Positions 7,601 to 58,835 of a stretch of DNA of 64,000 nucleotides are shown one piece after another. Made by a program: the position numbers and the translations under genes. The stretch is from Anaerolineaceae bacterium (GTDB lineage: Bacteria > Chloroflexota > Anaerolineae > Anaerolineales > UBA11657). The stretch covers positions 192,315 through 256,314 of the forward strand of contig BGOS01000003.1 in NCBI GenBank assembly GCA_003569365.1. The letters are read 5' to 3'. Each line of letters begins with the position of its first letter. The stretch's first letter is position 1. The notes beneath the pieces are model-generated. The model saw only the letters and a program-made list of their open reading frames with translations. It had not been told where the DNA came from and made no database searches.

Positions 7601-7803
7601 GCGCGGGCAGCCTGCAGTGCCAGCCAAGCAGCCAGCATGAGCAGCGCCAATGCGCGCAGCACCGCGGTTTTGTCGTAATCGAACATGCCCGCAGAGAACG
7701 GGTTGTAGTAGAGCGGGACTACGACAAGCGCCACCAGCCAGCCGGCTTCAAGGAATCCGGAGCAGAACTGGGCAGCTCGCGTAGGGGCCGCGGAGCCAGC
7801 CAT
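4663..7803 (-). CDS. Giant O-antigen-ligase (Wzy_C)-like membrane protein with C-terminal TPR repeats (intact paralog, 1046 aa)
   Basis: Long ORF with ATG start and many predicted TM segments. Motifs FDYDK, LGNPIFAGAFL, WTGSRGPLLAAL, VGYGPETFG, PDRAHNLLLD. The C-terminal ~330 aa are TPR-like (EPDYWYRVGQL, YLWNDWARFEY). Confidence 0.85.
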   Translation of the reverse strand: MAGSAAPTRAAQFCSGFLEAGWLVALVVVPLYYNPFSAGMFDYDKTAVLRALALLMLAAWLALQAARASRLPRWQQLRTTPLLAPVVVLIMATLLSTALSIDPRLSFFGSLSRNNGTYTLLALLVVALAVGTELRQPAQQQRLIGALLAASCVVSVHGIAQHFGFEPALWEYDLSLRIISTLGNPIFAGAFLGMAMPLTLACAVPLWQARNARGFLYATLLALQSVALWWTGSRGPLLAALCGVGFMLLIQFRQAGRRAWALALLATLAAGAIFITVLNIPNGPLQPLRTVAPLQRLANMLNSEDTSTSGRSRIWRGALRLATARTPIRFATGGADALQAIRPLVGYGPETFGPAFELVYDNAIGRDVFPDRAHNLLLDALVTSGGLGLAATLFMWAAILVLGMRTAGLLPDRSATLMLLLLTTSGGIAMGAAAYIIFDVSYVAPACGIGLVAGAAVYCASAPNTSNHTNPTEDRLLASAVLGTLAAHFIEVQVGIPTITTQLLFWTLVALLCSLSPIAPSAPLAASTPARKKDAKKSAPLNIITQWLVPGLITLLICTTLIADFAISRQRVAEQGALIITLMLLAALSSAALLARTWADYWRALLIASSTLVIFTIYNAALGALAQPAATTAVDALRIDSTYQSFFTAYNLIVWAVAAAISLALSQSQKVSALHSTTFAGATTALGFLFAAGLGWQTDVGSAQAEMTSKHAQTLEANNRLEPALGLFTQLTQLHAAEPDYWYRVGQLQRRIAQQNATPAERNPHRIAAEAALRTAIQARPFGADAAVTLARLYHDWATDEPSKAAQATAAFESATWVTPANVYLWNDWARFEYATRGDFSAAQAKLAQSLALDPAFDSTHLALGDMHLAHATIDTTAAGKHLADATAAYRNALALQKKPQDLAKTHIKLGRVAEAKAALTTDAFEEAQDEFAVAASLQSGSDLAATNVLQGNLYVQRSTLQPAQSAQHATTAIAFFERGLAEQAASGQAAREFTPWMVQRTLAQLYFGLGNKPAALAAAQAAQAGAPQSEQAYFAGMINELAPAK

Positions 7804-20453: not shown

Positions 20454-21278
20454 GTGAAAATTTTGATTGCAGCGGACATGGAGGGCGTCACCGGCGTTGT
20501 GAACTGGGATCACGTCGATCCGGCGCACGCTGAGTACCAGCGATTCCGCCGGTTGATGACCGCCGATGTGAACGCTGCGGTATGCGGTGCGTATTTAGGC
20601 GGAGCCTCCGCGGTTACGGTAACGGATGGACATTGGGGCAACCGTAATATTTTGATTGAGGAACTTGAAGAGCGGGCGACGTTACAAAGCGGTGGCACGC
20701 GCCCGCTGGCTATGGTTCAGGGTGTCGAAGCGGATGTGGCGGGTGTTTGCTTTGTGGGGTACCACGCGCGGGCTGGTTCGCAGTATGCTGTGCTGGACCA
20801 TACATGGTCTGACACCACTGTAGCCAACTTGCGGTTGAACGGAGAGGTGGTTGGCGAGATCGGCCTGAATGCTGCGGTGTGCGGCCACTTTAATGTTCCA
20901 GTGGTTATGATCTCTGGCGATCAGACTGCGTGCAAAGAGGCGCTTGAGTTGCTGGGCGGGCTGGAAGTGGCAACAGTGAAGCAGGCGCAAGGGCGGATGG
21001 CAGCAGACTGCCTGCCGCCGGTGGTTTCGCAGCGCCGCATCTGCGAGGCGGCGGCGCGCGCAGTTGCGCGCGTGGTGGCGGGAACCGCACCCGCGCCGTT
21101 TCGGCTGGTGCTGCCAGTGATGGTTGAGATTGAGTTTATGCAGTCTGACATGGCGGACCGCGCGAGTCTGGTTCCGGGCAGCCAGCGCGGGGCCGACCGC
21201 TGCGTGCAGTTTGAGGCACGCGATATGCTTGCGGCTTATAACGCGTTCAGAACATTGTGTGCGACATCGCGCAACTAG
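20454..21278 (+). CDS. M55-family metallopeptidase (DppA-type D-aminopeptidase)
   Basis: 274 aa. GTG start. The N-terminus MKILIAADMEGVTGV plus GYHARAG and EIGLNAA are typical of the M55 family. Confidence 0.85.
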   Translation: MKILIAADMEGVTGVVNWDHVDPAHAEYQRFRRLMTADVNAAVCGAYLGGASAVTVTDGHWGNRNILIEELEERATLQSGGTRPLAMVQGVEADVAGVCFVGYHARAGSQYAVLDHTWSDTTVANLRLNGEVVGEIGLNAAVCGHFNVPVVMISGDQTACKEALELLGGLEVATVKQAQGRMAADCLPPVVSQRRICEAAARAVARVVAGTAPAPFRLVLPVMVEIEFMQSDMADRASLVPGSQRGADRCVQFEARDMLAAYNAFRTLCATSRN

Positions 21279-21299
21279 CAATGGTCAAGGATACAACAA

Positions 21300-22766
21300 A
21301 TGATTGATTTGACGGTGGATCGGAAGACTGTGGAGCGCAATGCAAAACGCGCGCGCGAGCGCAACGTGCTTATTCCAACGCTGGCGCAGCAAGTTGCGCC
21401 GCAGACGGCGCCTGCAAAAATTCGAGAGCGGCTGAAAGGCATTGGGCTGTGGGACGTGGATCCCGCAAATTTGTTCCGGATCTCGTGGCATAACGCGCCG
21501 GCTGCGCGTGGCGGCGGGTTCGGTCCGGTGAATTACATCGAGTTTCCGTCGAGCATCACCGGGGTGCAGGCGCGCATCGTCGCGATTGTGGGCAAGTGGT
21601 TTCCCACTGGTGCGCACAAGGTGGGTCCGGCATTCGGCTGCTTGGTGCCGCGGCTGGTGAGCGGCCAGTTTGATCCCACGCGTCAGAAGGCGGTGTGGCC
21701 TTCAACCGGCAACTATTGCCGCGGCGGTGCCTATAACTCCGCCTTGCTGGGTTGCGAGTCCGTGGCCATCCTGCCGGAGGGCATGAGCGCGGAGCGCTTT
21801 GAGTGGCTGCAAACGATGGCGGGTGAAGTAATAAAGACGCCTGGATCCGAAAGCAATGTCAAAGAAATTTTTGATAAGTGCAATGAACTGCGCAAGTCTG
21901 GAACCGACCTGATGATCTTTGATCAATTTCAAGAGATGGGCAACTACCTCTGGCATTATTCCGTGACCGGCCGGGCACTGGAAGAGGTGGTGCGCCGATC
22001 GCTCGGCAGCGGCGATTCGTTTGCCGGTTTTGTGAGCCACACGGGTTCGGCCGGCACGATTGCGGCGGGTGATTATTTGAAGCAGCAGTTTCCGCACAGC
22101 AAGATTGTTGCAAGTGAGGCGTTGCAGTGTCCAACGTTGATCCAGAATGGTTTTGGGGCGCACCGGATCGAGGGCATTGGCGACAAGCATGTGCCGTGGA
22201 TTCACAACATCCGCAATACGGATATGGTAATGGCGGTGGATGATGACGCGGCAATGGCGATCACGCGACTGTTCAATGAGCCGGCGGGGCAGCGTCTGCT
22301 CGCCGGGAAGGGAGTGCCGGAGGCACTTGTGACGCGCCTTCCAGAACTTGGTATCTCATGTGTGGCTAATTTAATTGCGTCTATTCAATTCGCCAAGTGG
22401 TACGAGCTTGGGCCCAACGATGTGGTGGCCACCGTGCTCACGGACTCGATGGAGCTCTATCAAAGCCGCCTGCGTGAGCTAACAGAGCAGCACGGCGAGT
22501 TTGATGACCGCGCCGCGGCGGTGGCTTACGAGCGCCATCTTTTAGGTGCGCATACGGCCAATGTGCAGGAGCTGACGTACCCCGAGCGCAAGCGCGTGCA
22601 TAACCTTAAGTACTTTACATGGGTGGAGCAACAGGGCAAGGCAACGGCGGAGTTGAACGCGCAGTGGGAGCAGACTTCGTTTTGGACCGGAGTGCAGGGC
22701 CAGATGGGGGAAATGGATGCGTTGATTGATGAATTCAATGGCCGCTCCGGGTTGGCGGAGAACTGA
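21300..22766 (+). CDS. Long-form PLP-dependent enzyme of the Trp-synthase-beta/cysteine-synthase fold
   Basis: 488 aa. Probable PLP lysine in FPTGAHKVGPAFG, then STGNYCRGGAYNSALLG. Carries a ~90-aa N-terminal extension and a ~120-aa C-terminal extension relative to cysteine synthases. Confidence 0.7.
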   Translation: MIDLTVDRKTVERNAKRARERNVLIPTLAQQVAPQTAPAKIRERLKGIGLWDVDPANLFRISWHNAPAARGGGFGPVNYIEFPSSITGVQARIVAIVGKWFPTGAHKVGPAFGCLVPRLVSGQFDPTRQKAVWPSTGNYCRGGAYNSALLGCESVAILPEGMSAERFEWLQTMAGEVIKTPGSESNVKEIFDKCNELRKSGTDLMIFDQFQEMGNYLWHYSVTGRALEEVVRRSLGSGDSFAGFVSHTGSAGTIAAGDYLKQQFPHSKIVASEALQCPTLIQNGFGAHRIEGIGDKHVPWIHNIRNTDMVMAVDDDAAMAITRLFNEPAGQRLLAGKGVPEALVTRLPELGISCVANLIASIQFAKWYELGPNDVVATVLTDSMELYQSRLRELTEQHGEFDDRAAAVAYERHLLGAHTANVQELTYPERKRVHNLKYFTWVEQQGKATAELNAQWEQTSFWTGVQGQMGEMDALIDEFNGRSGLAEN

Positions 22767-22823
22767 GCGTAGATATTACGTGCCTGGCACGCAAGCTTGA
22801 ATACTGAGTAAATCTGGAGAACT

Positions 22824-24743
22824 ATGGCGACTACGAACATCAAGGATGACGCGACCACACAGGCGGGGGAGCCAGTGCGGTTTCAGGCGGAAATCCGGCA
22901 GCTGCTTGATATTCTGGTGCACTCGCTTTATACGCGCCGGGAAGTGTTTTTGCGCGAGTTGATTTCGAATGCGTCGGATGCGCTGAACCGCATGCAATTT
23001 GAAATGCTTACCAATACGGATGTGGTGGATCCGGAGGTTTCGGCTGCGATACGGATTACGGTTGATGAGTCCGGCAAGCGCCTGACAATTAGTGACAGCG
23101 GGGTGGGAATGTCGCGCACTGAGCTGGTTGAGAACCTTGGCACTATCGCCCGTTCGGGTGCGCAGCGCTTCATTGAAAATGCCAAGGAAACTGGCACTGA
23201 TGCGACCGACATCATTGGGCGGTTCGGGGTGGGTTTCTACTCGGTGTTTATGATTGCGGACGAGGTGCGGGTTACCTCACGCTCTTTTCGGCCGGAGGAT
23301 GAGGCTGCGTGTTGGGTGTGTGCGGGCGGCGAAACATTTACCTTGGAGGCGTCGGACCGCAGCCACCGGGGCACCGTGATTGAGCTTAAGCTGCGCGAGG
23401 AAGCGGCGGAGTTTGCGGATGCATTTCGCATTACGCAAATTGTGAAGCAGCACTCGGATTATGTGCCGTTCCCAATTTATGTGGGCAAGCTAACTGACAA
23501 AGCCGGCGAGTTCAAGATTGCCAATCAGCAGACGGCGCTGTGGCGGCAGCCGGCGCGGGATGTGAAGACCGGCGAGTATGTTGAGTTCTTCCGGCAGCTT
23601 ACGTTTAGCGGCGGCGAGCCACTGTTGCAAATTCATTACGCGGCGGATGCGCCGGTTCAGATTTACAGTATTTTGTTTGTGCCTCCCAAGGCCAGCCGGG
23701 ATCTGTTCACGGCGCGCTATGAGAGTGGGATCCGGCTGCATGCGCGCAAGATATTGATTGAGGAAAATTGCCGGGCGCTGGTGCCTGAGTACCTGCGGTT
23801 CTTGCAAGGGGTTGTGGATTGCGAGGACTTGCCATTGAATGTTGCGCGTGAAAATGTGCAGTCGAGTCCATTGCTTGTGAAAATCAGCCGTGTGCTTGGC
23901 CGCAAAGTTGTGGATGAGTTCAAGAAGCTTGCGCTGAATGATGCTGACAAGTATCTTGGATTCTGGAACGAGTTTGGCATATTTCTCAAGGAGGGGGCTG
24001 CCACGGACCCGGAAGCGGCGACCGACTTGATGGAATTGTTGCGCTTCCGCAGCACGCGCGTGGATGGGGAGGTGACGGCGCTTGCGGAGTACGTGCAGCG
24101 GGTGAAGGATGATCGGAAGGAAATATATTATCTGCTGGCAGACGATCTGCGGACTGCCACCCGCAGCCCGCACCTTGATTATTTCAAGCGCAATGGTTAT
24201 GAGGTATTGCTGCTGATCGAACCGGTGGATGCGTTCCTGATGGCAAATGTGCGTGAGTTTGACGGCCACAAGCTGGTCAACGTTGCGTCAGGAGAGATGA
24301 AATTGCCGCCGGCTGCAGCTGCCGATGATGCGGTGGTTGAGGAAGCGCTTGCCGGGCGCGATCTTGCGCGGCTGATTGTTAAGTTCAAGAGCCAGCTGGG
24401 CTTGCGGGTTGCTGATGTGCGGGACACAGACCGGTTATCGGATTCGCCGGTGCGGCTGGTGGACTCTGGCGGCGCGCCCGGCCGGGAAGTGCAACGGGCA
24501 ATGCGCGCCATGGATCGCGAATACGAACAGCCGAAGATGGTGCTTGAATTAAACGCACGGCATCCGCTGCTGCGCAGTTTGGTGCATCTGCCAGAGCCGA
24601 GCGAGATCTTGGATTTGTGCGTGGAACAGCTGTTTGATGCAGCGCTACTGCTGGAAGGGCTGCACCCTGATCCCGCGGGAATTGTGCCGCGCCTGCAAGA
24701 GCTGATGCAGGCTGCTGTCGGCAAAACCACCCCAGCTGAGTAG
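22824..24743 (+). CDS. htpG: Molecular chaperone HtpG (Hsp90)
   Basis: 639 aa. Motifs FLRELISNASDALNR, DSGVGM, GRFGVGFYS, PLNVARE. Confidence 0.95.
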   Translation: MATTNIKDDATTQAGEPVRFQAEIRQLLDILVHSLYTRREVFLRELISNASDALNRMQFEMLTNTDVVDPEVSAAIRITVDESGKRLTISDSGVGMSRTELVENLGTIARSGAQRFIENAKETGTDATDIIGRFGVGFYSVFMIADEVRVTSRSFRPEDEAACWVCAGGETFTLEASDRSHRGTVIELKLREEAAEFADAFRITQIVKQHSDYVPFPIYVGKLTDKAGEFKIANQQTALWRQPARDVKTGEYVEFFRQLTFSGGEPLLQIHYAADAPVQIYSILFVPPKASRDLFTARYESGIRLHARKILIEENCRALVPEYLRFLQGVVDCEDLPLNVARENVQSSPLLVKISRVLGRKVVDEFKKLALNDADKYLGFWNEFGIFLKEGAATDPEAATDLMELLRFRSTRVDGEVTALAEYVQRVKDDRKEIYYLLADDLRTATRSPHLDYFKRNGYEVLLLIEPVDAFLMANVREFDGHKLVNVASGEMKLPPAAAADDAVVEEALAGRDLARLIVKFKSQLGLRVADVRDTDRLSDSPVRLVDSGGAPGREVQRAMRAMDREYEQPKMVLELNARHPLLRSLVHLPEPSEILDLCVEQLFDAALLLEGLHPDPAGIVPRLQELMQAAVGKTTPAE

Positions 24744-24806
24744 CACCGGGTGGTGGCTTATGATCGTGCCGGATTTTGGACAGTTGATTAGAAGCGCATT
24801 GATGCT

Positions 24807-25838
24807 GTGAAGATTAATATTCTGGGTGGTGGGCCGGCCAGTCTCTACTTCGCCATATTGATGATGAAGCGAGACCCGGCGCACGTGATAACAGTATTTG
24901 AGCGTGACGGACCGGAGGACACCTTTGGGTGGGGCATTGTATTTTCTGGGCGTACCTTTCAATTTCTGGAGGAGAATGATGCACTGAGCCATGCCCGGAT
25001 AGTCGCCTGCTCCCAAACTTGGGAGGATGTCATCATCGGGCATCCGCTTGAAACGATTGCGATTGGGGGCAATTTATTCTCTGGTATTGCGCGGCTTACA
25101 TTCCTGAATATTCTGCAGCAGCGCTGCCTTGAGCTTGGGGTGGACTTGCGGTACCACGCCAACATTGGAGCAGAGCAGCTGCCGGCGCTGCGCGAGTGCG
25201 ACTTGTTTGTTGGGGCAGATGGTTCCAACAGCATGTTTCGCAAGTACTATGAAGATCTGTTCTTGCCAACAATTGATTTGCGGCAAAACAAGTTTGTTTG
25301 GCTCGGCACACCGCAGTCCTTTGATGGCTTGGCGATGTATTTCCGCGAGAACGCGGCTGGAGTTTTTATTGCGCATGCGTACCGCTTTGTTGCGGCTGAT
25401 AAACCGTTGAACGGGGCTTGCAGCACATTTGTGGTGGAGTGCGCACCGGAAACCTGGCTGCGGGCGGGCCTCGATAAGATGGGCGAGGCAGATACCTGCG
25501 CTTATTTGGCCGGTGTGTTTGCCGAGCCGCTGCAGGGCCATGCGCTGCTGGCCAACAAGTTTTTGCGCTGGTTGAATTTTCCGATTGTGAAGAACAAGCG
25601 CTGGCATCATGGCAATCTGGTGTTGCTGGGTGACGCGCTGCATACGGCGCATTTTTCGATTGGAAGTGGAACCAAGCTTGCGCTTGAAGACGCGGCTGCA
25701 CTGGCCGATGCGTTTTCCGGCCAGCGCAGCGTACCTGCGGCGTTGTCAGAGTTTGAGCGCAAGCGTAAGCGGTGGGTGGATGAGTTTCAAGATGCCGCGC
25801 TGCGCAGTCCTTACCTGGCTGGAAAATGTTGGTGGTGA
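24807..25838 (+). CDS. FAD-dependent aromatic-ring monooxygenase of the salicylyl-CoA 5-hydroxylase / 2-aminobenzoyl-CoA monooxygenase type (3' end frameshifted)
   Basis: GTG start. Motifs ILGGGPASLYFA (dinucleotide-binding GxGxxG), GADGSNS, LLGDALHTAHFSIGSGTKLALEDA. After ...QDAALRS the conserved continuation (LTWLENV...FAYRAQTRS) lies in the +1 frame. Confidence 0.8.
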   Translation: MKINILGGGPASLYFAILMMKRDPAHVITVFERDGPEDTFGWGIVFSGRTFQFLEENDALSHARIVACSQTWEDVIIGHPLETIAIGGNLFSGIARLTFLNILQQRCLELGVDLRYHANIGAEQLPALRECDLFVGADGSNSMFRKYYEDLFLPTIDLRQNKFVWLGTPQSFDGLAMYFRENAAGVFIAHAYRFVAADKPLNGACSTFVVECAPETWLRAGLDKMGEADTCAYLAGVFAEPLQGHALLANKFLRWLNFPIVKNKRWHHGNLVLLGDALHTAHFSIGSGTKLALEDAAALADAFSGQRSVPAALSEFERKRKRWVDEFQDAALRSPYLAGKCWW

Positions 25839-25983
25839 GCTTGCGGGTGATCCGGTTGCGTTTGCATACCGCGCGCAAACGCGCAGCAAGCGCGTTGGCT
25901 ATAGCCGCGTCAAGCGCACTGCGCCAGACTTTGCTGCGCGCTATGACAGCTGGAAGGACCGGCAGCCGCCTGCAGCCGGCCCG

Positions 25984-26385
25984 GTGCCAACAGAATGGCT
26001 GGACCTTTTTTGCAAGCGCAGCTTTGGCCACCTTGCGACGCTCATGTCCGACGGCACACCTCATGTCACTCCGGTGTGGGTTGATTACGATGGCACGCAT
26101 GTGCTGGTCAACTCCGCGCGCGGTCGCTTGAAGGATAAGCACATGGAGGCGCGGCCGGATGTTGCACTTGAGATTCAGGACCCCGACAATCCTAACCGTT
26201 ACTTGCTTGTGCGCGGCGCTGTGGCTTCAATTAGCGAAGCCGATGCCGATGAGCAGTTGGATGCGATGTCGCCGCGCTATTTGAATCGGGAGAAATATCC
26301 AGCGGGTATGCGCTTTCCTGGTGAAGTGCGGCGGTTGTATAAGATTAAGCCGAAGAGTGTTGTATTTTGGGATCCGTTTGGATGA
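25984..26385 (+). CDS. PPOX-class (pyridoxamine-5'-phosphate-oxidase-like, F420/FMN split-barrel) domain; either a separate protein or the C-terminal domain of the upstream monooxygenase
   Basis: Motifs FGHLATLMSDGTPHVTPVWVDYDGTHVLVNSARGRLKDKHMEARPDVALEI..RYLLVRGAV..KIKPKSVVFWDP. The frame is open from 25609. A GTG at 25984 is possible but has no RBS. Confidence 0.7.
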   Translation: MPTEWLDLFCKRSFGHLATLMSDGTPHVTPVWVDYDGTHVLVNSARGRLKDKHMEARPDVALEIQDPDNPNRYLLVRGAVASISEADADEQLDAMSPRYLNREKYPAGMRFPGEVRRLYKIKPKSVVFWDPFG

Positions 26386-27158
26386 GTGCTGTGCAACGGG
26401 TGGCTTGGGTTACGGGGGCGGGGCGGGGCATTGGCGAGGTTACTGCGCGCGAGCTGGCGGCTGCCGGTTACAAGGTGGCTGTGTCTGCGCGAACAGTAAA
26501 CGATGTTGAGCGTGTCGCGGAATCGATCTGTGCGGCTGGCGGAATTGCGGTGGCCGTGCCATGTGATGTGACGCTGCCGGCTTCGGTGTCGGCGGCTGCC
26601 GGTCGCATTAGCGCCGCGCTGGGGGTGGTGGGTGTCTTGATCAACAATGCCGGGGCTGCAGAGTCGCATAAGTTTGTGGGGCATGACGATGAACTCTGGC
26701 AGCGCATGCTGAACGCAAATCTCAATTCTGTATATTTTGTGACGAAGTCCGTTGTCGGGGGAATGGTTGCAGCAAACTGGGGGCGAATTGTGACGGTGGC
26801 TTCGATTGCTGCGCGGGTGGGGGGCAAATACATCGCCGCGTATACGGCCAGCAAACATGGCGTGCTGGGACTTACCCGCGCGCTTGCGGTGGAACTCGTC
26901 GCGCATAATATTACGGTGAATGCAGTTTGTCCGGGGTATGTTGACACCGCCATGACCGCAAACTCAGTGGAAAACATCAGCAGGCGCACCAACACTAGTC
27001 TCGATGAAGCGCGGGCGGCCCTTGAAAAGTTGAATCCGCAGCAGCGTTTAATCGCGCCGGCAGAAGTGGCGCGCGTTGTGCTGATGTTGGCAGGGGAAGC
27101 GAGTGCTGGGATTACGGGCCAAGCCATCAACGTTGATGGCGGCATGGTGATGAGCTAG
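26382..27158 (+). CDS. Short-chain dehydrogenase/reductase (3-hydroxyacyl-CoA dehydrogenase-like)
   Basis: ATG at 26382 forms an ATGA overlap with the upstream stop. Motifs VTGAGRGIG, NNAG, YTASKHG (YxxxK). Confidence 0.85.
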   Translation: MSAVQRVAWVTGAGRGIGEVTARELAAAGYKVAVSARTVNDVERVAESICAAGGIAVAVPCDVTLPASVSAAAGRISAALGVVGVLINNAGAAESHKFVGHDDELWQRMLNANLNSVYFVTKSVVGGMVAANWGRIVTVASIAARVGGKYIAAYTASKHGVLGLTRALAVELVAHNITVNAVCPGYVDTAMTANSVENISRRTNTSLDEARAALEKLNPQQRLIAPAEVARVVLMLAGEASAGITGQAINVDGGMVMS

Positions 27159-27257
27159 AGCGTGTTGTGTGCGTGCGGCTTTCGGCACTTTACGGCGATG
27201 GCACTCGTCTATGATATTTCGAGTGCTCAACTTGGAAGCTGGTGTGGCTAGGGTGCT

Positions 27258-28057
27258 ATGAAGCGGGATAAGTTTGACTTCGAGTATGTGGTGCGCGACG
27301 GAGTGGCGACGATCACCCTCAATCGGCCAGAGGTGTTAAACGCACTGACATTCGAAATCTATGCGCAGCTGCGGGACTTGTTCGAGGAGTTGCGCTACGA
27401 AGATGAGTGAAGGCGGTTGTGATTACCGGCGCCGGGCGCGGGTTTTGCTCAGGCGGGGATGTACACAAGATTATTGGCGAAATGCTCGGGCGTGACATGC
27501 ATGCGCACCTTGAGTTTTGCCGGATGACGGGACATTTAATTCGGAATATGCGCTTGCTTCCCAAGCCGATCGTGGCGGCCGTGAATGGGTTGGCAGCGGG
27601 GGCCGGTGCTGTAATTGCACTTGCCGCTGACTTCCGGGTGCTGGCTGACAGTGCGCGTTTCGCATTCTTGTTTAGTCGCGTGGGACTTACGGGCGCAGAC
27701 ATGGGGGCGGCTTTCTTGCTGCCGCGGGTTGTTGGGCAGGGGCGCGCTGCGGAGTTGCTGATGCTGGGCGATGACTTGGATGCGGCTGCTGCCGAGCGGT
27801 GCGGACTGGCGAACCGCGTAGTTTCCGGAGAGCGGGTACTGGAGGTGGCGCAGGAGCTGGCGCTGCGGTTGGCTGCCGGCCCGGTGTATGCGACCGGGGT
27901 TACCAAACTCATGCTGAACAATGCGTGGACGATGGACATTAGCACTGCGCTGGAGTCTGAGGCGCAAGCGCAGGCGTTGATGATGATGGGCGCTGATCAC
28001 CGCGCTTTTTACGAAGCGTTTGTTGATAAACGGGCGGCCAAGTTCACGGGTCGGTGA
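27258..28057 (+). pseudogene. Enoyl-CoA hydratase/isomerase (crotonase), split by a 1-nt frameshift at 27407-27410
   Basis: A 50-codon ORF at 27258..27410 (MKRDKFDFEYVVRDGVATITLNRPEVLNALTFEIYAQLRDLFEELRYEDE*) is the crotonase N-terminus. ORF 27407..28057 continues with VKAVVITGAGRGFCSGGD...AAVNGLAAGAGAVIALAADFR. Together they form one canonical domain. Confidence 0.8.
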
Positions 28058-28085
28058 GTGATGAATTGGTTTAAGGTGGAGCGGC

Positions 28086-28490
28086 ATGAAGCGACAGGTT
28101 ATTAATCCTGCAAGCCTTGCGCCGCCATCGGGCTACGTCTACGGTTTGGCTACAGAGGGCGGGCGCGTGCTGCACCTTGCGGGTCAAACCAGCATGGACG
28201 CGAGCGGGCGGATTGTTTTCCCCGGAGATATTGTGGCGCAATTCGGCCAAGCGCTTGCAAATATATTGTGTGTGGTGGAGGCAGCTGGCGGTGACGGCAG
28301 TGCGATTGTGAAGCTCACCATTTTTGTCATTGATAAACGGGGCTACCGTGAAAATTTGCGCCGCGTCGGCGAGAAGTACCGGTCACTGATGGGGAAGCAT
28401 TATCCGCCCATGACGCTGGTGGAAGTAAAGAGCTTGTTTGATGACGAAGCCATGGTTGAGATTGAGGGTGTGGCTGTGCTCGATAGCTGA
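28086..28490 (+). CDS. RidA/YjgF-family enamine/imine deaminase
   Basis: 134 aa. Motifs LHLAGQTSMD, typical RidA length, C-terminal VEIEGVAV. Confidence 0.9.
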   Translation: MKRQVINPASLAPPSGYVYGLATEGGRVLHLAGQTSMDASGRIVFPGDIVAQFGQALANILCVVEAAGGDGSAIVKLTIFVIDKRGYRENLRRVGEKYRSLMGKHYPPMTLVEVKSLFDDEAMVEIEGVAVLDS

Positions 28491-28608
28491 ATGTGGATCA
28501 ATGCTCACATGCATGGGGCGCCGAGATTTCGACGTGTGGGTGCTTTTGTTTGGACAACAAAATGAGCAGCCTGCGAACCGGCCGTGCTTGGGTTGGTAGC
28601 TGGTAATT

Positions 28609-29766
28609 ATGGAATTTTCACTTAGCGCTACGCAAGCGGCGGTACAACAGCTTGCGCGCAAGTTTGCTGATGAGCGCGTGGCTCCCCTCTCGCGAGAGAT
28701 GGATGAGCAAGGTGCCATGCCACTTGCCCTTATTTCAGATATGGCTGCGGTGGGTCTGCTGGGTGGTCCGTTGCCCGCTGAGCATGGCGGCGGAGCGTGG
28801 GATAAAGTGAGCGCGGCTCTCTGTTATGAGGAGCTGGGCCGGGTTGATTCATCGGTCCGGGGTTTTATGACTGTGCACTCCAGCCTTGTTGCGCAGTGCA
28901 TCCAGCAGTGGGGCAGCGTGGAGCAGCGCCGGCAGTATTTGCCGATGCTTATTTCTGCAGAGAGCATCGGCTGTTACTGCCTGACTGAGCCGAATGCAGG
29001 TAGTGATGCGGCCAGCATGGAGGCAACGGCTGTGCCAGATGGAGCGGGCTACCGGCTGAATGGGGAGAAAATCTGGATTACTAATGGCGGCATTGCACAG
29101 CTGGCAATTGTGTTTGCGAGCACGGACCGCACGCTGCGCCACAAAGGAGTGGGCGCATTTCTGGTGCCGACTAATGCGCCAGGATTTGTGCGTCGCAAAA
29201 TGCCGGGGCGCGAACTCGGCCATCGCGCAGCGGATCATGCCCACATTCGTCTGGAGAATATTTACGTTCCGGTCGATTCTATGTTGGGCGGGCCCGGCGA
29301 GGGTTTTCGGGTGGCCATGTCTGCGCTGGACCATGGGCGCCTGGGTGTGGCGGCGGGCGCCGTCGGAGTGGCGCAAGCCTGCCTGGATGCGAGTGTTGCG
29401 TTTGCGCGTGAGCGGCGCCAGTTTGGGCAGCGTGTGGGTGATTTTCAAATGATACAAGCTGCGCTGGCAGACATGGCGGCTGATGTGGAAGCAGCGCGGC
29501 AGCTCACCCTGCGGGCAGCATGGATGCAGGATCAGGGTCTCAAATCCACCCGCGCTACGTCGATCGCGAAATTGTTTGCAGTGGAGGCGGCGGTGCGGGC
29601 TGCCAACGAGGCGGTGTTGCTGCATGGCGGCCGTGGTTACACCAATGAGTATCCGGTGGAACGGTATTTGCGCGATATCAAAGGCTTGCAGATCTACGAG
29701 GGTACAGCGCACATCCAGCGCATAGTGATTGCGCGTGACTTGCTCGGCAAGGATACTGTGCCATAA
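28609..29766 (+). CDS. Acyl-CoA dehydrogenase
   Basis: 385 aa. Motifs CLTEPNAGSDA, WITNGG, GRGYTNEYPVERYLRD, QIYEGT. Confidence 0.9.
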   Translation: MEFSLSATQAAVQQLARKFADERVAPLSREMDEQGAMPLALISDMAAVGLLGGPLPAEHGGGAWDKVSAALCYEELGRVDSSVRGFMTVHSSLVAQCIQQWGSVEQRRQYLPMLISAESIGCYCLTEPNAGSDAASMEATAVPDGAGYRLNGEKIWITNGGIAQLAIVFASTDRTLRHKGVGAFLVPTNAPGFVRRKMPGRELGHRAADHAHIRLENIYVPVDSMLGGPGEGFRVAMSALDHGRLGVAAGAVGVAQACLDASVAFARERRQFGQRVGDFQMIQAALADMAADVEAARQLTLRAAWMQDQGLKSTRATSIAKLFAVEAAVRAANEAVLLHGGRGYTNEYPVERYLRDIKGLQIYEGTAHIQRIVIARDLLGKDTVP

Positions 29767-29815
29767 GTGGACTGAGGCAGTTGGTACTGCTCGTTTCTAG
29801 TTCGCGGAGGTAAAT

Positions 29816-31366
29816 TTGAAAGCATCTGATCTTCCCCTGGTCTACAACAGCGTGGCAATATTGGAGCATAACCTTGAGCAACGCGCGGACAAGGTGGCTC
29901 TCCTTACCCCGGAGCGCGAGCTTACATTCCGGCAAGTGTCGGAAGAGGTCAATCGTCTCGGAAACGCACTAAAGAGCTTGGATGTGCGCATGGGCGAGTA
30001 TGTGGGAATTCTTGCGCCGGATTGTGCGGAGTGGGCCGTATCCTATTTTGCAATCATGAAGATCGGGGCTATCGCGGTTGGGATGAATACTTTGCTGAAG
30101 CCGCTTGAGCATTTGTATGCGCTCAGGGATTGCCGGGCGCGGGTGCTAATCATTCATCAATCACTGCTGGCCAGCTTGCAAGGCATCCGCGACCAGCTTG
30201 ATTTCGTCGCAAACATCATTGTGGTGGGCGGTGGCGGCGAGGCCGGAGACTTGGAATACCGGTCCGTGGTGGCAGCCGGAGGAGTTCAGCTTTTGAGTGC
30301 GCCGACGCAGCGCGAGGATTACTGTGCGCTGAATTACTCCAGTGGCAGTACCGGGGAGCCCAAGGGCATTTTGCATGCGCATAAGGATCTTGCGCTTACA
30401 GCGCAGCTATGGGCCGTTGATGTGCTTGGTTTGCGTGAGAGCGATCGGACACTTGCGACGGCTAAATTATTCTTCACATTTGGTACGGGCGGCAATCTAG
30501 TATTCCCGTGGTATGTTGGAGCCAGCTGTGTTCTGATGGCTGCGCCGCCGCGGGTGGTGGGTAACGTGCTGGAGCATGTGCAGCGCTTTCAGCCGACGAT
30601 CCTGTATCACGCGCCGACTGGTTACGCTGCGGTGTTGGCAAATGAGGATTTTGTGGCTGGGAAGTATGACATATCTTCTGTGCGGCTGTGCGTGTCGGCC
30701 GGCGAGTCTTTGCCGGCTTCTGTGTGGCAGGCGTGGAAGGATCGGACGGGACTGGACATCATCGATGGCATCGGGGCCACAGAGGTGTGGCATATTTTCA
30801 TTTCCAACCGGCCTGGTGACATCCGGCCGGGAAGCAGTGGCAAGCCAGTGGCCGGCTACGATGTGCGTATCGTTGACGAAGAGGGCGCAGCGGTTGCGCA
30901 GGGCGAAGTTGGCAATCTCCTCGTGCGCGGGGAGTCTACTGCGCTTGGCTATCTGCATCAATCGGAAAAAAGTCGCAAGACATTTCTCGGGGAGTGGTTG
31001 TTTACTGGCGACAAGTATCAGGTGGATGCCGATGGTTACTACTGGCATGCGGGCCGGTCTGATGACATGTTGAAGGTTGGAGGAATTTGGGTGTCGCCGG
31101 TGGAAGTGGAGAGCACACTGGTGAGTCATGCGGCGGTGCTTGAGTGTGCGGTGGTTGGGCAACAGGACGCATCTAATCTGGTTAAACCTAAGGCATTTGT
31201 GGTTTTGAAGGAGGGTGTGGCTGCCAGCGACCAAACGCGCGATGACTTGGTGGCTTACTGCCGCGAAAAAATGGCAGATTACAAACGTCCGCGCTGGATA
31301 GAATTTGTAGATCAGCTGCCTAAGACTGCAACCGGCAAGGTGCAAAGATTTCGGCTGCGGGGATAG
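29816..31366 (+). CDS. Aryl-CoA ligase of the benzoate/2-aminobenzoate-CoA ligase family (AMP-binding)
   Basis: 516 aa. TTG start after GGAGG. Motifs YSSGSTGEPKG, TGD, KVGGIWVSP, and C-terminal PKTATGKVQRFRLR. Confidence 0.85.
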   Translation: MKASDLPLVYNSVAILEHNLEQRADKVALLTPERELTFRQVSEEVNRLGNALKSLDVRMGEYVGILAPDCAEWAVSYFAIMKIGAIAVGMNTLLKPLEHLYALRDCRARVLIIHQSLLASLQGIRDQLDFVANIIVVGGGGEAGDLEYRSVVAAGGVQLLSAPTQREDYCALNYSSGSTGEPKGILHAHKDLALTAQLWAVDVLGLRESDRTLATAKLFFTFGTGGNLVFPWYVGASCVLMAAPPRVVGNVLEHVQRFQPTILYHAPTGYAAVLANEDFVAGKYDISSVRLCVSAGESLPASVWQAWKDRTGLDIIDGIGATEVWHIFISNRPGDIRPGSSGKPVAGYDVRIVDEEGAAVAQGEVGNLLVRGESTALGYLHQSEKSRKTFLGEWLFTGDKYQVDADGYYWHAGRSDDMLKVGGIWVSPVEVESTLVSHAAVLECAVVGQQDASNLVKPKAFVVLKEGVAASDQTRDDLVAYCREKMADYKRPRWIEFVDQLPKTATGKVQRFRLRG

Positions 31367-31605
31367 GCTGTCTATTTTCAGCCGCTAACCCATTCTCTTG
31401 GATGGTTTTGCGTGGCTCCTGAAGCGTGGTTGGATAAAGTTCACAGAGTAGACTAGTGGTTGCATAGTATCGCCGCAGCAAGAATTGGGATGGCAATGTT
31501 CGCTGCAGTACTGGAAATATGTAGTTGTGGGTGCAGTTGGCGCCGGGGTATGTCTCCAGCGCGTCGCGCCAGTTGTTGTTGGAAACGAGCTGTGAGGATA
31601 CATTG

Positions 31606-33957
31606 ATGACAGATACGGGTAAGGTGCATCGCTATTTGGGAAAAGGCCATAGGTTAATTGAAGGTCAGGATAAGGTGTCCGGGCGTGTTAAGTACACTGC
31701 TGATCTAAGGCTGGCCGGGATGGTCTACTTGCGTCCGGTCCTTAGCCCCCATGCGCATGCTTCGATTGTTTCTTACAAGCTTGATGCGGCGCGGCTGGTT
31801 CCGGGAGTGGTTGCTGTGCTGACTGATGAGGATTTGTGCACCAGAGATACGGTGATTAATTCCCGGTCCAGCGCCGTGCTCGCGCGCGGTGTTGTTATGT
31901 TTAGAGGCCAGCCGGTGGTGGCTGTGGTGGCGGAGAGTGAGGCAGCGGCGCAGAGTGGGGCTGATGCGGTTGAGATCGAGTACTCACCACTGCCGGCTGT
32001 GGTTGATCCGGAGCGGGCAATTAAGGCCGATGCGCATGTGCTGTGGCCGAATGGTGTGCCCAAAGAGGGCGCGGACTTGACGGCGCAGCACGGTGCCAGT
32101 GCGAAGGAGACTGCCAAGGTTGTGCGTGCATACTCCAACCTGCATAATGAGCATCATTTCGGGCGCGGTAATGTCGAGCATGGTTTCGAGGAGGCTCACG
32201 TCGTCATCGAGCGGGTGTACCGGACTCCGATTGTGCATCAGGGATACATGGAGCCGCATTCGGTGGTGTGTGATCCGGATACGCTTGCCCAGAGCATCAC
32301 CATCTACACAAGCACGCAGGGGCAATACATTGTGCGGGACGAAACCGCGCGAATTCTTCGCCTACCCAAACGGCAAGTGCGGGTGGTGCCGATGGCAGTT
32401 GGTGGTGGATTTGGCGCAAAGTATGGCTCGCTTGAGCCGTTGGTGGGGGCTGTGGCGCTGGCGATTGGCCGACCGGTGCAGCTTGTGCTAACGCGGTCAG
32501 AAGATTTTCTAACCACCACGCCGTCCCCGGCTTGCATTATTGAATTGAAGACGGGTGCGAGCCGGGATGGAAAAATCACCGCGATTGAGGCGCGCGTCAA
32601 GCTGGATAATGGTGTGTTTCCATTTGAGCTTGGTGGAATTGTGGGAATGCTGCTCGGGGGCTACTATAAGTGCGCCAATGTAGATATTAAGTGCTTAGAG
32701 GTACTTACAAATAAACCACAAAGCGGCGCCTATCGGGCGCCGGGTGCTCCTTCCGCAACACTGGCGATTGAATCGAACGTTGATGACATGGCGCACGCGC
32801 TTGGAATTGATCCACTTGAATTTCGCTATGCCAATGCGGCTGAGACGGGTGACCCATGTGGCAACGGCGATCCTTGGCCGAATATTGGACTGAAGCAGTG
32901 TTTGGAGCGAATGCGAGTACATCCTTTATGGCAGCAGCGGCGAGGTAGTACTGGCGTGCGAACGGAGAATGTCCATAATGGACGATCTTTCAAATCCGGC
33001 TTAGGCAGCGATCGAAAGCAGACCGGGGTTGGGATTGCGGTCGGAGGCTGGCCTTGCGGAATGGGGCCTGCGTCGGCGGTGTGCCGGGTCGACTCGGATG
33101 GCACTGTGCGAGTGCACGTAGGTACTGTTGATGTGTCTGGATCCAACAGTAGTTATGTGCTGGTTGCGGCTGAGGTGCTTGGTGTATCCCCGGACAAGAT
33201 TGAGATTGTGCAGGGTGACACCAGTAGTGGCCCATTCGGGCCTCCAAGTGGCGGAAGCCAAACTACTTACAGTACGGCTGGTGCGGTGGCGGGCGCTGCG
33301 CAAGTGGTGCGGGACCGGCTGCTGCAGATGGCCAGTGATCACTTTGAGGCTAGCGTGGATGATTTGGAAGTACGCGATGGTTTTGTTTTTGTGAAGGGGG
33401 TTCCTGATCGGAGTGTGGGTTTTGGCGCGCTGGCTTCTACAGCTGAGAGTAAAAAAGGTGGCCCGGGACCGGTAATTGGTGAGGGGCGGGCTGCGGTTGA
33501 GGAAAATGCGCCGGGATTTGTGGTTCATCTTGCCAAGGTGGAGATAGATACTGACACCGGGCATGTGGAAGTTGTGGATTATGTTGCGATACAAGATGTC
33601 GGCTTTGCACTCAACCCGACGATGGTGGAGGGTCAGATTCACGGGGGGGTGGCGCAGGGGATTGGCTGGGGGTTGCATGAAGCGATGCTGTACGATGACA
33701 ACGGTCAGTTGCTTACCGGTACTTTTATGGACTACGATTTACCCAAGATTGAGCAAGTACCAAATATGGAAGTAATCCTAATAGAGAATCCTTCGCCGCT
33801 TGGCCCGTTTGGTGCGCGCGGTATTGGTGAGCCGCCGATTGTGCCGGGTGCGGCGGCAATTGGCAACGCGATTAGAGATGCAATCGGGGCCCGGCTTTGC
33901 GAATTGCCGATGCGCCCCGAGGCTGTGTGGCGAGCGCTTCAAAGTATCGAACGATAG
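31606..33957 (+). CDS. Xanthine-dehydrogenase/aldehyde-oxidase-family molybdopterin-binding subunit
   Basis: I chose the ATG at 31606 (MTDTGKVHRYLGKGHRLIEGQDKVSGRVKYTADL), preceded by GAGGA. Motifs GGGFG, YRAPG, and GIGEPP near the C-terminus. Confidence 0.85.
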   Translation: MTDTGKVHRYLGKGHRLIEGQDKVSGRVKYTADLRLAGMVYLRPVLSPHAHASIVSYKLDAARLVPGVVAVLTDEDLCTRDTVINSRSSAVLARGVVMFRGQPVVAVVAESEAAAQSGADAVEIEYSPLPAVVDPERAIKADAHVLWPNGVPKEGADLTAQHGASAKETAKVVRAYSNLHNEHHFGRGNVEHGFEEAHVVIERVYRTPIVHQGYMEPHSVVCDPDTLAQSITIYTSTQGQYIVRDETARILRLPKRQVRVVPMAVGGGFGAKYGSLEPLVGAVALAIGRPVQLVLTRSEDFLTTTPSPACIIELKTGASRDGKITAIEARVKLDNGVFPFELGGIVGMLLGGYYKCANVDIKCLEVLTNKPQSGAYRAPGAPSATLAIESNVDDMAHALGIDPLEFRYANAAETGDPCGNGDPWPNIGLKQCLERMRVHPLWQQRRGSTGVRTENVHNGRSFKSGLGSDRKQTGVGIAVGGWPCGMGPASAVCRVDSDGTVRVHVGTVDVSGSNSSYVLVAAEVLGVSPDKIEIVQGDTSSGPFGPPSGGSQTTYSTAGAVAGAAQVVRDRLLQMASDHFEASVDDLEVRDGFVFVKGVPDRSVGFGALASTAESKKGGPGPVIGEGRAAVEENAPGFVVHLAKVEIDTDTGHVEVVDYVAIQDVGFALNPTMVEGQIHGGVAQGIGWGLHEAMLYDDNGQLLTGTFMDYDLPKIEQVPNMEVILIENPSPLGPFGARGIGEPPIVPGAAAIGNAIRDAIGARLCELPMRPEAVWRALQSIER

Positions 33958-34085
33958 AGGAAGGGCGCACATTTACGACGAACAACCGTCCGCTACACCG
34001 CGAATTTCACCAGCTTGTCTTTAAGGTTCGGTGAAGGTCAGAGGGGGAGTTTTGAAGTGCGGTAGGTTCTTACGGGGAATAGGGA

Positions 34086-58799: not shown

Positions 58800-58835
58800 G
58801 GTGGGTTTCCTGTGTTGTGGGCTCTTAATGACTGG

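Follow-up and report, generated by a model that had tools for sequence, protein, structure and literature searches.

Positions 24807–26385 of the window, the 64,000-nt stretch of DNA that was analyzed, hold one gene for a 525-aa two-domain enzyme in a CL500-11-type freshwater Anaerolineae lineage. As written, the gene is divided between two reading frames. The first ORF starts at a GTG and extends from 24807 to 25838 on the forward strand (343 aa), ending in ...DAALRSPYLAGKCWW* upon translation, and its stop at 25838 agrees with the earlier sequence-only reading. The open stretch of the +1 frame spans 25609–26385, and its translation from 25810 is LTWLENVGGELAGDPVAFAYRAQTRSKRVGYSRVKR.... NCBIfam analysis demonstrated that the profile PRK08255 (bifunctional salicylyl-CoA 5-hydroxylase/oxidoreductase) spans the break, with positions 1–335 matched in frame 1 and 335–387 in frame 2; the family continuation, previously placed at about 25808, thus resumes in the +1 frame from 25810. 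Alignment with close relatives identified the lesion as a single extra C at 25809/25810, the window having AGTCCTT (25806–25812) and the relatives AGTCTT or AGCCTT, so that the repair proposed earlier, removal of one C in agt-C-ctt, is the correct one. The repaired ORF ends at 26385 as had been expected, although it encodes 525 aa and not about 526. The GTG at 25984 (Val393) is the sole start codon ahead of the PPOX domain, again as first read. The stop TGA of the fusion (26383–26385) and the ATG of the next gene (26382–26384) overlap as ATGA, the coupling initially described, and the same overlap is present in the gene calls of relatives. The features of the locus are listed in Table 1.

Table 1. 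Features of the fusion gene and its operon (window coordinates).
Feature	Position	Strand	Evidence
Monooxygenase module, residues 1–334, frame 1, GTG start	24807..25808	+	PF01494; PRK08255 profile 1–335, 350 bits; VioD 3c4a
CC dinucleotide with one base surplus (frameshift lesion)	25809..25810	+	Sole indel in the fusion gene vs L001 and L074–L078
Monooxygenase C-terminal helices, residues 335–372, +1 frame	25810..25923	+	PRK08255 335–387; VioD alignment to residue 352; AF2 helices 309–371
Interdomain connector, residues 373–392, conserved	25924..25983	+	Conservation in 54 homologues
Predicted PPOX-class split-barrel (FDOR-B-like) domain, residues 393–525, plus stop codon	25984..26385	+	PF01243; TIGR03618; PDB 3f7e
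Short-chain dehydrogenase/reductase (SDR), start overlapping the fusion stop (ATGA)	26382..27158	+	PF00106 at 1.5e-54
Enoyl-CoA hydratase/crotonase (ECH, PRK08258 type), broken by a missing A at ~27405	27258..28057	+	Two ORFs match profile 17–60 and 63–277; intact 266 aa in relatives
RidA/YjgF family (enamine/imine deaminase family)	28086..28490	+	PF01042 at 5.6e-19; conserved beside the fusion (L003, L004)
Acyl-CoA dehydrogenase (ACAD)	28609..29766	+	NCBIfam families, E down to 1e-106; conserved in L003 and L004
Benzoate-CoA ligase family aryl-CoA ligase	29816..31366	+	TIGR02262, 559 bits vs cut-off 375; conserved in L003

A GC1/2/3 composition map for further frameshifts was not discriminating at 59% GC, and the window was compared with its relatives instead, over 14.8–54.2 kb (approximately 39 kb). 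In seven relatives at 98–99% DNA identity (L001 and six further independent assemblies), the fusion and enoyl-CoA hydratase genes were both intact. Over 16.5 kb, the window differed from L001 by 154 substitutions and exactly two indels, and these indels are the two frameshifts; comparison with each of the six further assemblies gave the same result. The second frameshift is the loss of one A 1.6 kb further on, within the enoyl-CoA hydratase gene, where the window reads GATGAGTG at 27400–27407. Other indels within 33–54 kb were all intergenic. The truncated 343-aa and 216-aa products occurred on one contig only, as against dozens of assemblies of the same population; by comparison, an identical HtpG was found on 18 contigs and an identical SDR on 6. 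The broken reading frame described in the sequence-only reading is thus present in the window, but it is private to one assembly and is not a trait of the gene or the lineage. The deposited record splits both genes, as GBL36520.1 (343 aa, annotated as "salicyloyl-CoA 5-hydroxylase") and GBL36524.1 (216 aa), and both entries should carry a frameshift flag.

Two causes of the private indels were weighed. If they were real mutations, the aryl-CoA operon would be in the course of being lost from the assembled strain as a young pseudogenized operon. This is consistent with the finding that the only two coding indels in the approximately 39 kb compared lie within one operon, neither in a long homopolymer, and with the likely source of the data, an Illumina MiSeq metagenome, in which single-base consensus indels outside homopolymers are uncommon. 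In addition, the xanthine-dehydrogenase-like and amidohydrolase genes immediately downstream are truly fragmented in a sister population (~85% identity; L084 and L085), as reproduced in two assemblies. However, the two private indels stand against zero window-private substitutions over 20454–31366 (11 kb), and the truncated products are confined to their single contig. Both indels also lie on haplotype differences and resemble hybrids of alleles: the relatives have AGT or AGC at the first site where the window has AGTC, and at the second site, the haplotype switches in the window within 10 nt. About 13% of operon positions are no more than 1 nt from a polymorphic site, giving a joint chance of ~0.02 for both indels. 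Because they coincide with population haplotype differences, a chimeric consensus is the likeliest cause, and the clustering of such errors in the operon is explained by its higher SNP density. We consider the loss of the operon by real mutation unlikely; judging from these alignments, both frame breaks are most probably artefacts of a consensus drawn from co-occurring strains that differ at these sites. An old pseudogene under relaxed selection was ruled out by the lack of private substitutions and by the strong purifying selection in the lineage.

It was also considered whether a programmed +1 ribosomal shift at AGU-CCU-UAC could yield the fusion without any repair of the sequence. The only point in its favor is that the two frames jointly encode a conserved protein. 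The relatives lack the frame change and all encode the protein in one frame, the site has no slippery or stop-codon context, and a second, unrelated frameshift lies in the neighboring gene. Such a shift is extremely improbable and for practical purposes is refuted by the uninterrupted orthologues.

Database searches with the repaired protein returned an uninterrupted 525-aa protein at 99% identity and more than 120 full-length homologues, which rules out a chance ORF. The best 120 homologues listed were uninterrupted proteins of 513–555 aa with 99–100% query coverage, containing both FAD_binding_3 and PNPOx_N. Neither these 120 nor any examined locus with a complete copy had a monooxygenase gene ending in its own stop ahead of a PPOX gene with its own start; all were single ORFs, and an independent PPOX gene behind a genuine stop was thereby ruled out. 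The monooxygenase–PPOX fusion proposed from the letters of the window is accordingly borne out, and it recurs in hundreds of independent assemblies. Fusions were found in Chloroflexota, in Methylomirabilota/Rokubacteria, and in other metagenomes, and they constitute a single tight clade of at least 57% identity, which a 50%-identity library reduced to a single representative (P0180, 57% identity), the remaining monooxygenase relatives having at most 47% identity and other architectures. In the connector, P373 and F375 were invariant among 54 homologues, and Y379, W382, P387, G391, and P392 were at least 90% conserved. The dN/dS values in this lineage were 0.04–0.10 overall, 0.07–0.11 for the monooxygenase part and 0.04–0.06 for the connector and PPOX part (0 for the closest pair). 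An AF2 model of the two-domain protein had a pLDDT of 89.3 and a pTM of 0.74. These sequence comparisons indicate that the fusion is real and under selection.

Separate neighboring genes for the two domains were considered as Rosetta-stone evidence and rejected. Stand-alone PPOX homologues (42–64% identity to the domain in most loci) had no monooxygenase within 8 kb, and stand-alone monooxygenase operons of Pyrinomonadaceae had no PPOX gene nearby. The earlier description of an unreported domain swap holds insofar as no describing paper was found in the literature library searched, which returned nothing linking aminobenzoyl- or anthraniloyl-CoA monooxygenase to F420, PPOX, or FDOR, or CL500-11 to F420. 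The architecture itself is neither rare nor hidden. It is plentiful in metagenomes and already bears the automatic names "anthraniloyl-CoA monooxygenase" (JGI) and "TIGR03618 family F420-dependent PPOX class oxidoreductase" (NCBI).

The N-terminal module is assigned by profile and structure matches to the group-A FAD monooxygenases of the VioD/anthraniloyl-CoA/salicylyl-CoA hydroxylase type. It matched PF01494 above the gathering threshold and PRK08255 (NF006101) at an E value of 2.1e-104 in frame 1. Its PRK08255 score of 350 bits falls well short of the equivalog cut-off of 1078 bits, so that the substrate could be another aryl-CoA. The closest solved structure was VioD (PDB 3c4a; E value by sequence, 5.5e-56), and Foldseek analysis of the whole two-domain AF2 model also returned VioD (E value, 5e-36; TM score, 0.82–0.88 relative to the target), together with KMO, MHPCO, and PHBH.

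The second module occupies the position of the Old-Yellow-Enzyme (OYE) reductase in the classical enzymes. Neither ORF nor the representative P0180 matched PF00724 (Oxidored_FMN), and PF01243 stood in that place, whereas the classical relatives P0183, P0185, and P0196 had PF00724 from residue ~394–400. The earlier claim of a PPOX-class domain instead of the OYE reductase is thus supported. In frame 2, PF01243 (PNPOx_N) was matched at 2.3e-11; the TIGR03618 score was 88.2 bits (cut-off, 79.05), with positions 2–125 of the 127-position profile covered. Foldseek with the two-domain model gave monooxygenase matches only, and the PPOX domain was therefore modeled (pLDDT, 92.8) and searched on its own. 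The best solved relative was MSMEG_3380 (PDB 3f7e), with an E value of 4.6e-14 by sequence and 2.3e-12 by fold (TM score, 0.73/0.82). The next F420 fold neighbors were 5jab (with F420; 4e-8) and 4qvb (with F420; 4e-7), the latter ranking after one uncharacterized PNPOx-like protein. According to these profile matches and the model, the C-terminal domain is a split-barrel domain of the FDOR-B/TIGR03618 class.

The sequence relationships suggest that this domain probably uses F420H2, replacing the NADH/FMN OYE module. MSMEG_3380 reduces alpha,beta-unsaturated carbonyls as a homodimer that depends on F420H2, for which its apparent KM is 130 nM (PMC3034190), and ene-reduction comparable to that of OYEs is established for FDORs (PMC5449967). 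Residues R51, K53, R55, R80, W35, and Y76 of the MSMEG_3380 groove and pocket align with R440, K442, K444, R469, W424, and Y465 of the fusion. F420 production has been biochemically shown in Chloroflexi, and genomes from the candidate phylum Rokubacteria are reported to contain F420 biosynthesis genes (PMC8498797).

Alternatively, the domain may work without F420. It would then either be a genuine stand-in for the OYE module, with bound FMN or FAD receiving electrons from NAD(P)H, or serve mainly as a dimerization or regulatory module. The split-barrel class is mixed in its cofactors (F420, FMN, FAD, and heme), which are not reliably predicted by phylogeny or sequence (PMC8518648), and Foldseek ranks 6–50 for the domain include many FMN-, FAD-, or heme-binding proteins. 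The F420 groove of MSMEG_3380 is conserved only in part, its R24, Q30, N32, H47, and Q52 being unconserved in the fusion domain. No F420 biosynthesis (cof/fbi) or F420-reducing genes were found in the window (64 kb) or around distant fusions, a result that is uninformative because these are small parts of the genomes, and stand-alone homologues occur in clades labeled Gammaproteobacteria and Verrucomicrobiia. Against these points, the curated TIGR03618 cut-off is exceeded, the three top PDB entries by fold (3f7e, 5jab, and 4qvb, counted past the uncharacterized protein) are F420 enzymes, and the named fusion hosts belong to the two F420-associated groups noted above. The PPOX part is also under stronger constraint than the monooxygenase part, which argues against a passive role. 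A function without F420 appears rather unlikely on this balance, and F420H2 is retained as the probable reductant.

The gene order fusion–SDR–ECH–RidA–ACAD–CoA ligase is kept in L003 (fusion 59% identical), and fusion–ECH–RidA–ACAD occurs on the short contig L004 (58% identical); an AMP-ligase adjoins the distant fusions in L086 and L087. Stand-alone monooxygenases were found in the same operon type in L006 and L007, indicating that a fused reductase is not obligatory for the pathway.

From this context, the pathway may be pictured as follows. The benzoate-CoA-ligase-family enzyme would activate an aromatic acid, most plausibly anthranilate, and the FAD domain would hydroxylate the aryl-CoA with NAD(P)H and O2. 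Acting as a dimer, the split-barrel domain would then reduce the hydroxylated intermediate by adding a hydride, probably from F420H2, at its activated double bond, a step performed by the NADH/FMN OYE domain in the classical bifunctional enzyme. The expected product would be a non-aromatic compound of the 2-amino-5-oxocyclohexenecarboxyl-CoA type, and its deamination, ring opening, and beta-oxidation could subsequently be carried out by RidA, crotonase, SDR, and acyl-CoA dehydrogenase. We regard it as likely that the locus is a single gene for an FAD monooxygenase, a connector, and an FDOR-B domain, with artefactual frameshifts, and that its product is an anthraniloyl-CoA-type hydroxylase/reductase probably using F420H2. 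A bolder proposal, that the fusion is a natural two-cofactor dearomatizing enzyme in which an FAD/NAD(P)H hydroxylase is hard-wired to an F420H2-dependent ene-reductase, is offered tentatively, at somewhat less than even chances.

If true, the fusion would contain the first FDOR-B1-type domain for which a physiological substrate is defined, since FDOR-B1 enzymes have been characterized by promiscuous activities only, their physiological substrates being listed as unknown (PMC8498797). A catabolic role of F420 would likewise be demonstrated for the first time outside Actinobacteria, in the abundant CL500-11 Chloroflexi of lakes and in Rokubacteria of soil and groundwater; according to the same review, there have been no experimental studies on the role of F420 in bacteria outside Actinobacteria (PMC8498797). 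An OYE module would have been exchanged in evolution for a deazaflavin module at the same junction, providing a natural module-swap experiment of OYE/NADH against FDOR/F420H2 on the same monooxygenase scaffold. The stereoselectivities of FDORs and OYEs are complementary, and on that account, the swap could be useful to the design of biocatalytic cascades. CL500-11 bacteria are among the most abundant in deep lakes, and the fusion is relevant to their use of nitrogen-containing aromatic compounds.

Among known systems, VioD (PDB 3C4A, 8GQR) is the nearest solved structure to the monooxygenase module. It differs in that it consists of a single domain, lacks a partner reductase domain, and takes as substrate a free indole-derived intermediate, not a CoA thioester. 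Like the fusion, the PRK08255/ACMR-type enzymes have a second redox module joined at profile position ~388 to the homologous monooxygenase module (positions 1–387), and their operons likewise contain an aryl-CoA ligase, a PRK08258-type crotonase, RidA, and acyl-CoA dehydrogenase. The overall chemistry is expected to be shared as well, with hydroxylation and then a reduction that gives a non-aromatic CoA ester (PMC3534580). In contrast, the C-terminal module is a split-barrel PPOX/FDOR-B domain of ~130 aa in the fusion and an OYE TIM barrel of ~380 aa in the classical type, and the second step of the former would probably draw on F420H2, in place of the NADH via FMN of the latter. The whole-protein score of 350 bits is far under the PRK08255 equivalog cut-off, and OYE-type or stand-alone relatives reach at best 47% identity.

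The split-barrel domain shares its fold and family with MSMEG_3380 and the FDOR-B1/TIGR03618 mycobacterial reductases. It is about 50% identical to MSMEG_3380 over an 83-residue core alignment and keeps several residues of the F420 groove and deazaflavin pocket. MSMEG_3380 and its FDOR-B1 kin add hydride to activated C=C bonds (PMC3034190; PMC5449967). Whereas MSMEG_3380 is a free-standing, promiscuous enzyme (131-residue PDB chain) whose physiological substrate is unknown, the fusion domain is tethered to a specific monooxygenase in a catabolic operon, and it occurs in Chloroflexota and Rokubacteria, not in Actinobacteria.

Profile searches of the two reading frames at the fusion locus, together with comparison with relatives, demonstrated that this locus is one gene broken by a single base. 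The first frame matched Pfam FAD_binding_3 and the NCBIfam family PRK08255 ("bifunctional salicylyl-CoA 5-hydroxylase/oxidoreductase") at profile positions 1-335 (E value, 2e-104), and the PRK08255 match went on in the second frame at positions 335-387. The rest of the second frame matched PNPOx_N (PF01243) and TIGR03618, "F420-dependent PPOX class oxidoreductase," with 88.2 bits (curated cut-off, 79.05). The sole start codon before the PPOX domain was GTG 25984 (Val393 of the repaired protein), and the stop TGA 26383-26385 was overlapped by ATG 26382-26384 of a short-chain dehydrogenase (SDR) gene. The sequence-only reading had proposed a monooxygenase stop at 25838 with the family continuation in the +1 frame, a PPOX-class domain reaching 26385, GTG 25984 as the only internal start and ATGA coupling to the next gene, all of which was borne out. 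Its predicted fusion also held, with a length of 525 aa rather than about 526. The two-domain AlphaFold2 model was confident (pLDDT 89.3, pTM 0.74). The deposited 343-aa product is GBL36520.1, "salicyloyl-CoA 5-hydroxylase [Anaerolineaceae bacterium]."

Coordinates of the features in the window and in the loci compared with it
Feature	Sequence	Coordinates	Strand	Details
Monooxygenase-frame ORF	Window	24807-25838	+	GTG start; 343 aa; ends in DAALRSPYLAGKCWW before the stop
+1 frame, open	Window	25609-26385		Reads LTWLENVGGELAGDPVAFAYRAQTRSKRVGYSRVKR from 25810
Enoyl-CoA hydratase (PRK08258 type), split	Window	27258-28057
Hydratase, first piece	Window	27258-27410		50 aa
Hydratase, second piece	Window	27407-28057		216 aa
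Two fragmented genes	L084, L085	16791-20465 (~ window 31525-35309)		Xanthine-dehydrogenase (XDH)-family molybdoenzyme, 161+470+119 aa; amidohydrolase, 92+325 aa
XDH-like gene, split	L074	11292-12777 (window ~32365)		240 aa, then 521-aa product
Stand-alone monooxygenase	L006	7980-9281		~375 aa
Stand-alone monooxygenase	L007	8001-9128		~375 aa
Free-standing PPOX homologue	L008	7974-8387		~133 aa
Free-standing PPOX homologue	L022	7959-8387		~133 aa
Two large adjoining Wzy_C proteins	Window	2760-7803	-	639 and 1046 aa
Unannotated ORF	Window	57930-58799		289 aa; unusually low GC at codon positions 2 and 3
DUF4357 protein	Window	58836-59720	-
GmrSD_C/HHH_3 protein	Window	60424-62037

An uninterrupted 525-aa homologue (P0001) was 99% identical to the repaired protein. 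Each of the best 120 matches listed spanned the whole protein (513-555 aa; coverage, 99-100%; identity, 57-99%) and contained both PF01494 and PF01243. Thus, among these matches, the uninterrupted fusion expected in orthologues was found, as was the pairing of FAD_binding_3 with a PNPOx domain beyond this genome. Database names of the homologues included "anthraniloyl-CoA monooxygenase" (JGI) and "TIGR03618 family F420-dependent PPOX class oxidoreductase" (NCBI). The named hosts were Anaerolineae/Anaerolineales, Chloroflexi, Methylomirabilota and Rokubacteria MAGs, and the nearest named genome was Chloroflexi bacterium ZSMay80m-chloro-G1 (87% amino acid identity). A protein library reduced to clusters of 50% identity contained a single full-length fusion representative (P0180; 521 aa, 57% identity). 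All other relatives of the monooxygenase module there were at most 47% identical and differed in architecture: stand-alone proteins of ~375-390 aa, fusions of 650-780 aa to an Old-Yellow-Enzyme (OYE) domain (PF00724), proteins of ~510-534 aa with a ~140-aa C-terminal tail lacking a Pfam hit (P0188, P0190, P0200, P0215, and P0317), and one 921-aa fusion to an AMP-dependent ligase (P0280). The monooxygenase–PPOX fusion is therefore a single tightly conserved clade in a family whose C-terminus is modular. The tails of P0188, P0200, and P0215 end in an OYE-like AGRxD motif, suggesting from sequence a degenerate OYE remnant.

Over 16.5 kb, 154 substitutions separate the window from the 99%-identical contig L001, and there are exactly two indels, +C (25809) and -A (27405); the former is the extra C to which the broken frame had been ascribed. 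The latter (GATGAAGTG to GATGAGTG) splits the hydratase gene, whose pieces match PRK08258 profile positions 17-60 and 63-277 and of which all relatives have an unbroken copy (264-266 aa). Both the fusion (525 aa) and the hydratase (266 aa) were intact wherever the relatives' contigs cover them, and six further independent assemblies encoding an identical SDR gave the same result at the sites they cover. A single contig carries the truncated products; the HtpG and SDR of the window were found on 18 and 6 contigs, respectively. Programmed frameshifting was excluded, as the frame change was seen in no relative.

The frame break is private to this assembly and is probably a chimeric-consensus artefact. 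At the first site, relatives have CGC AGT CTT or CGC AGC CTT, a synonymous T/C polymorphism, and the window has both alleles adjacent (CGCAGTCCTT). At the second, relatives read TAT GAA GAT GAA GTG or TAC GAA GAA TCA GTG, and the window reads TAC GAA GAT GA- GTG, a haplotype switch within ten bases with one base gone. As ~13% of operon positions lie no more than one base from a site polymorphic among relatives, the joint chance of both indels being so placed is ~0.02. SNP density among relatives was ~1.5 times higher in the operon (4.6% of positions) than upstream (3.1%), which would explain why consensus errors cluster in the operon; mismatches to L001 per kb were likewise ~2-3 times higher there. 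A real rare allele carrying both indels would fit the absence of long homopolymers at either site, a sequencing source that is probably Illumina, and the reproducible fragmentation of neighbouring genes in a sister population (L084 and L085). It is nevertheless rather unlikely, since both indels sit on haplotype differences and no private substitution accompanies them: over 20454-31366, every window substitution is shared with at least one relative, unlike an evolving pseudogene lineage. Near-identical contigs occur in ENA records MEHR18-4_SAMD001123xx and many DRR583xxx runs, and MiSeq 2x300 reads were the basis of the Lake Biwa MAGs described for the freshwater lineage CL500-11 (Mehrshad et al., 2018; PMC6169038), to one of which the window probably belongs.

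Between 33 and 54 kb, the indels that set the window apart from four relatives were all intergenic. Two of them were further private single-base deletions, at 35847 (upstream of the CbiM gene) and 38470 (between the ABC ATPase and M17 peptidase genes). In the Logan assembly L074, the XDH-like gene is split by a one-base indel particular to that assembly, so single-base frameshifts in this microdiverse population are not confined to the assembly of the window. The fragmentation of the two genes downstream of the operon in L084 and L085 (~85% DNA identity; SRR35384896 and SRR35551589), two independent assemblies, looks like genuine gene decay. The window copies are intact (XDH-like, 810 aa; amidohydrolase, 407 aa).

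The fusion gene is under selection in the CL500-11-type lineage. Between the populations L001, L084, and L002, residues 1-372 had a dN/dS of 0.07-0.10, and the connector and PPOX part had one of 0.04-0.06. In the 20-residue connector, P373 and F375 were invariant and Y379, W382, P387, G391, and P392 nearly so among 54 aligned homologues, a pattern that favours domains set in a fixed arrangement over domains joined by a floppy linker. The protein is a single polypeptide of FAD monooxygenase module, conserved connector, and FDOR-B-like module.

The operon holds an aryl-CoA ligase and beta-oxidation-like enzymes, the fusion being followed by SDR, PRK08258-type crotonase, RidA, acyl-CoA dehydrogenase (ACAD), and a benzoate-CoA-ligase-family enzyme (TIGR02262; 559 bits, cut-off 375). 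This order is kept beside fusions only 58-59% identical (L003 and L004), and more distant ones (L086 and L087) are flanked by ECH and/or aryl-CoA ligase. The same partners surround a stand-alone monooxygenase in the Pyrinomonadaceae MAG loci L006 and L007 (RidA-ECH-ACAD(-ligase) type). This enzyme is 48-52% identical and lacks a reductase domain, so some lineages either can do without the second module or supply it in trans. Synteny with L001 stops just after the ligase gene (window 31362, L001 16557), beyond which L001 has an MFS transporter and an Amidohydro_2 gene and the window, L074-L076, and L080-L083 have the XDH-like gene; the 3' end of the operon is a strain-level structural variant. 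Elsewhere in the window, a small group of genes that are likely of defence or mobile type (57930-62037) may be a genomic islet, and the two proteins with Wzy_C/O-antigen-ligase domains adjoin a TPR protein, an unusual pairing.

Free-standing homologues of the PPOX domain (L008-L073) have a wide distribution that takes in Blastocatellia, Rokubacteria/Methylomirabilota, Chloroflexota, Binatia, and other groups. They share the motif VTPVWVDYDGTHV, most are 42-64% identical to the fused domain, and no monooxygenase gene lies within 8 kb of any of them. The fused module probably derives from such proteins.

By score and modelled fold, the C-terminal domain is a TIGR03618/FDOR-B member with predicted F420 use. 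By sequence, residues 393-475 had just one relative in the PDB, 3F7E (E value, 4.6e-14). The domain modelled separately (pLDDT 92.8) was also closest in fold to 3F7E, "MSMEG_3380 F420 reductase" (E value, 2.3e-12; TM 0.73/0.82), followed by Rv2074 with F420 (5JAB), the uncharacterised PNPOx-like 2I02, and Rv1155 with F420 (4QVB). MSMEG_3380 is a homodimeric FDOR-B enzyme of class FDOR-B1 (PMC8498797) that acts on alpha,beta-unsaturated esters, which it reduces, and whose apparent KM for F420H2 is 130 nM (PMC3034190). Activated alkenes, cyclohexenone among them, are reduced by FDORs, which are seen as OYE counterparts with complementary stereoselectivity (PMC5449967). F420 production is biochemically confirmed in Chloroflexi, and Rokubacteria genomes are reported to contain genes for F420 biosynthesis (PMC8498797); named hosts of the fusion belong to both phyla. 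Cofactor preference in the split-barrel class is mixed (PMC8518648), which counts against F420 use, and no F420-related gene was found in the 64-kb window or beside distant fusions. The second module is likely a reductase replacing OYE, with the balance tipping slightly towards F420H2 as its hydride donor.

Under limiting NADH, the reaction of the bifunctional aryl-CoA monooxygenase/reductase (ACMR) type forms 5-hydroxyanthraniloyl-CoA (PMC3534580). The ACMR product is an enamine, and the conserved RidA, of the enamine/imine deaminase family, would fit an amino-substituted substrate such as anthranilate. The pathway downstream of this step is still regarded as unknown (PMC9007349). In the proposed route, the ligase would form anthraniloyl-CoA or a related aryl-CoA, which the FAD module would hydroxylate with NAD(P)H and O2. 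The dimeric split-barrel module would then transfer hydride, probably from F420H2, onto the activated intermediate, giving a non-aromatic oxo-cyclohexene CoA ester, and RidA, crotonase, SDR, and ACAD may deaminate, open, and oxidize the ring.

A literature search that covered few subscription journals, and so gives absence of evidence only, returned no link of aminobenzoyl/anthraniloyl-CoA monooxygenase with F420, PPOX, or FDOR, nor of CL500-11 with F420. In the sequence alignment with 3F7E, the MSMEG_3380 groove and pocket residues R51, K53, R55, R80, W35, and Y76 line up with R440, K442, K444, R469, W424, and Y465 of the fusion, and R24, Q30, N32, H47, and Q52 are not kept. The fusion is an abundant, uncharacterised variant of a known bifunctional enzyme. 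It would work like the ACMR/salicylyl-CoA hydroxylase-reductase family, yet is not a member, because it lacks the OYE domain that defines the family and its score of 350 bits falls far below the equivalog cut-off of 1078.
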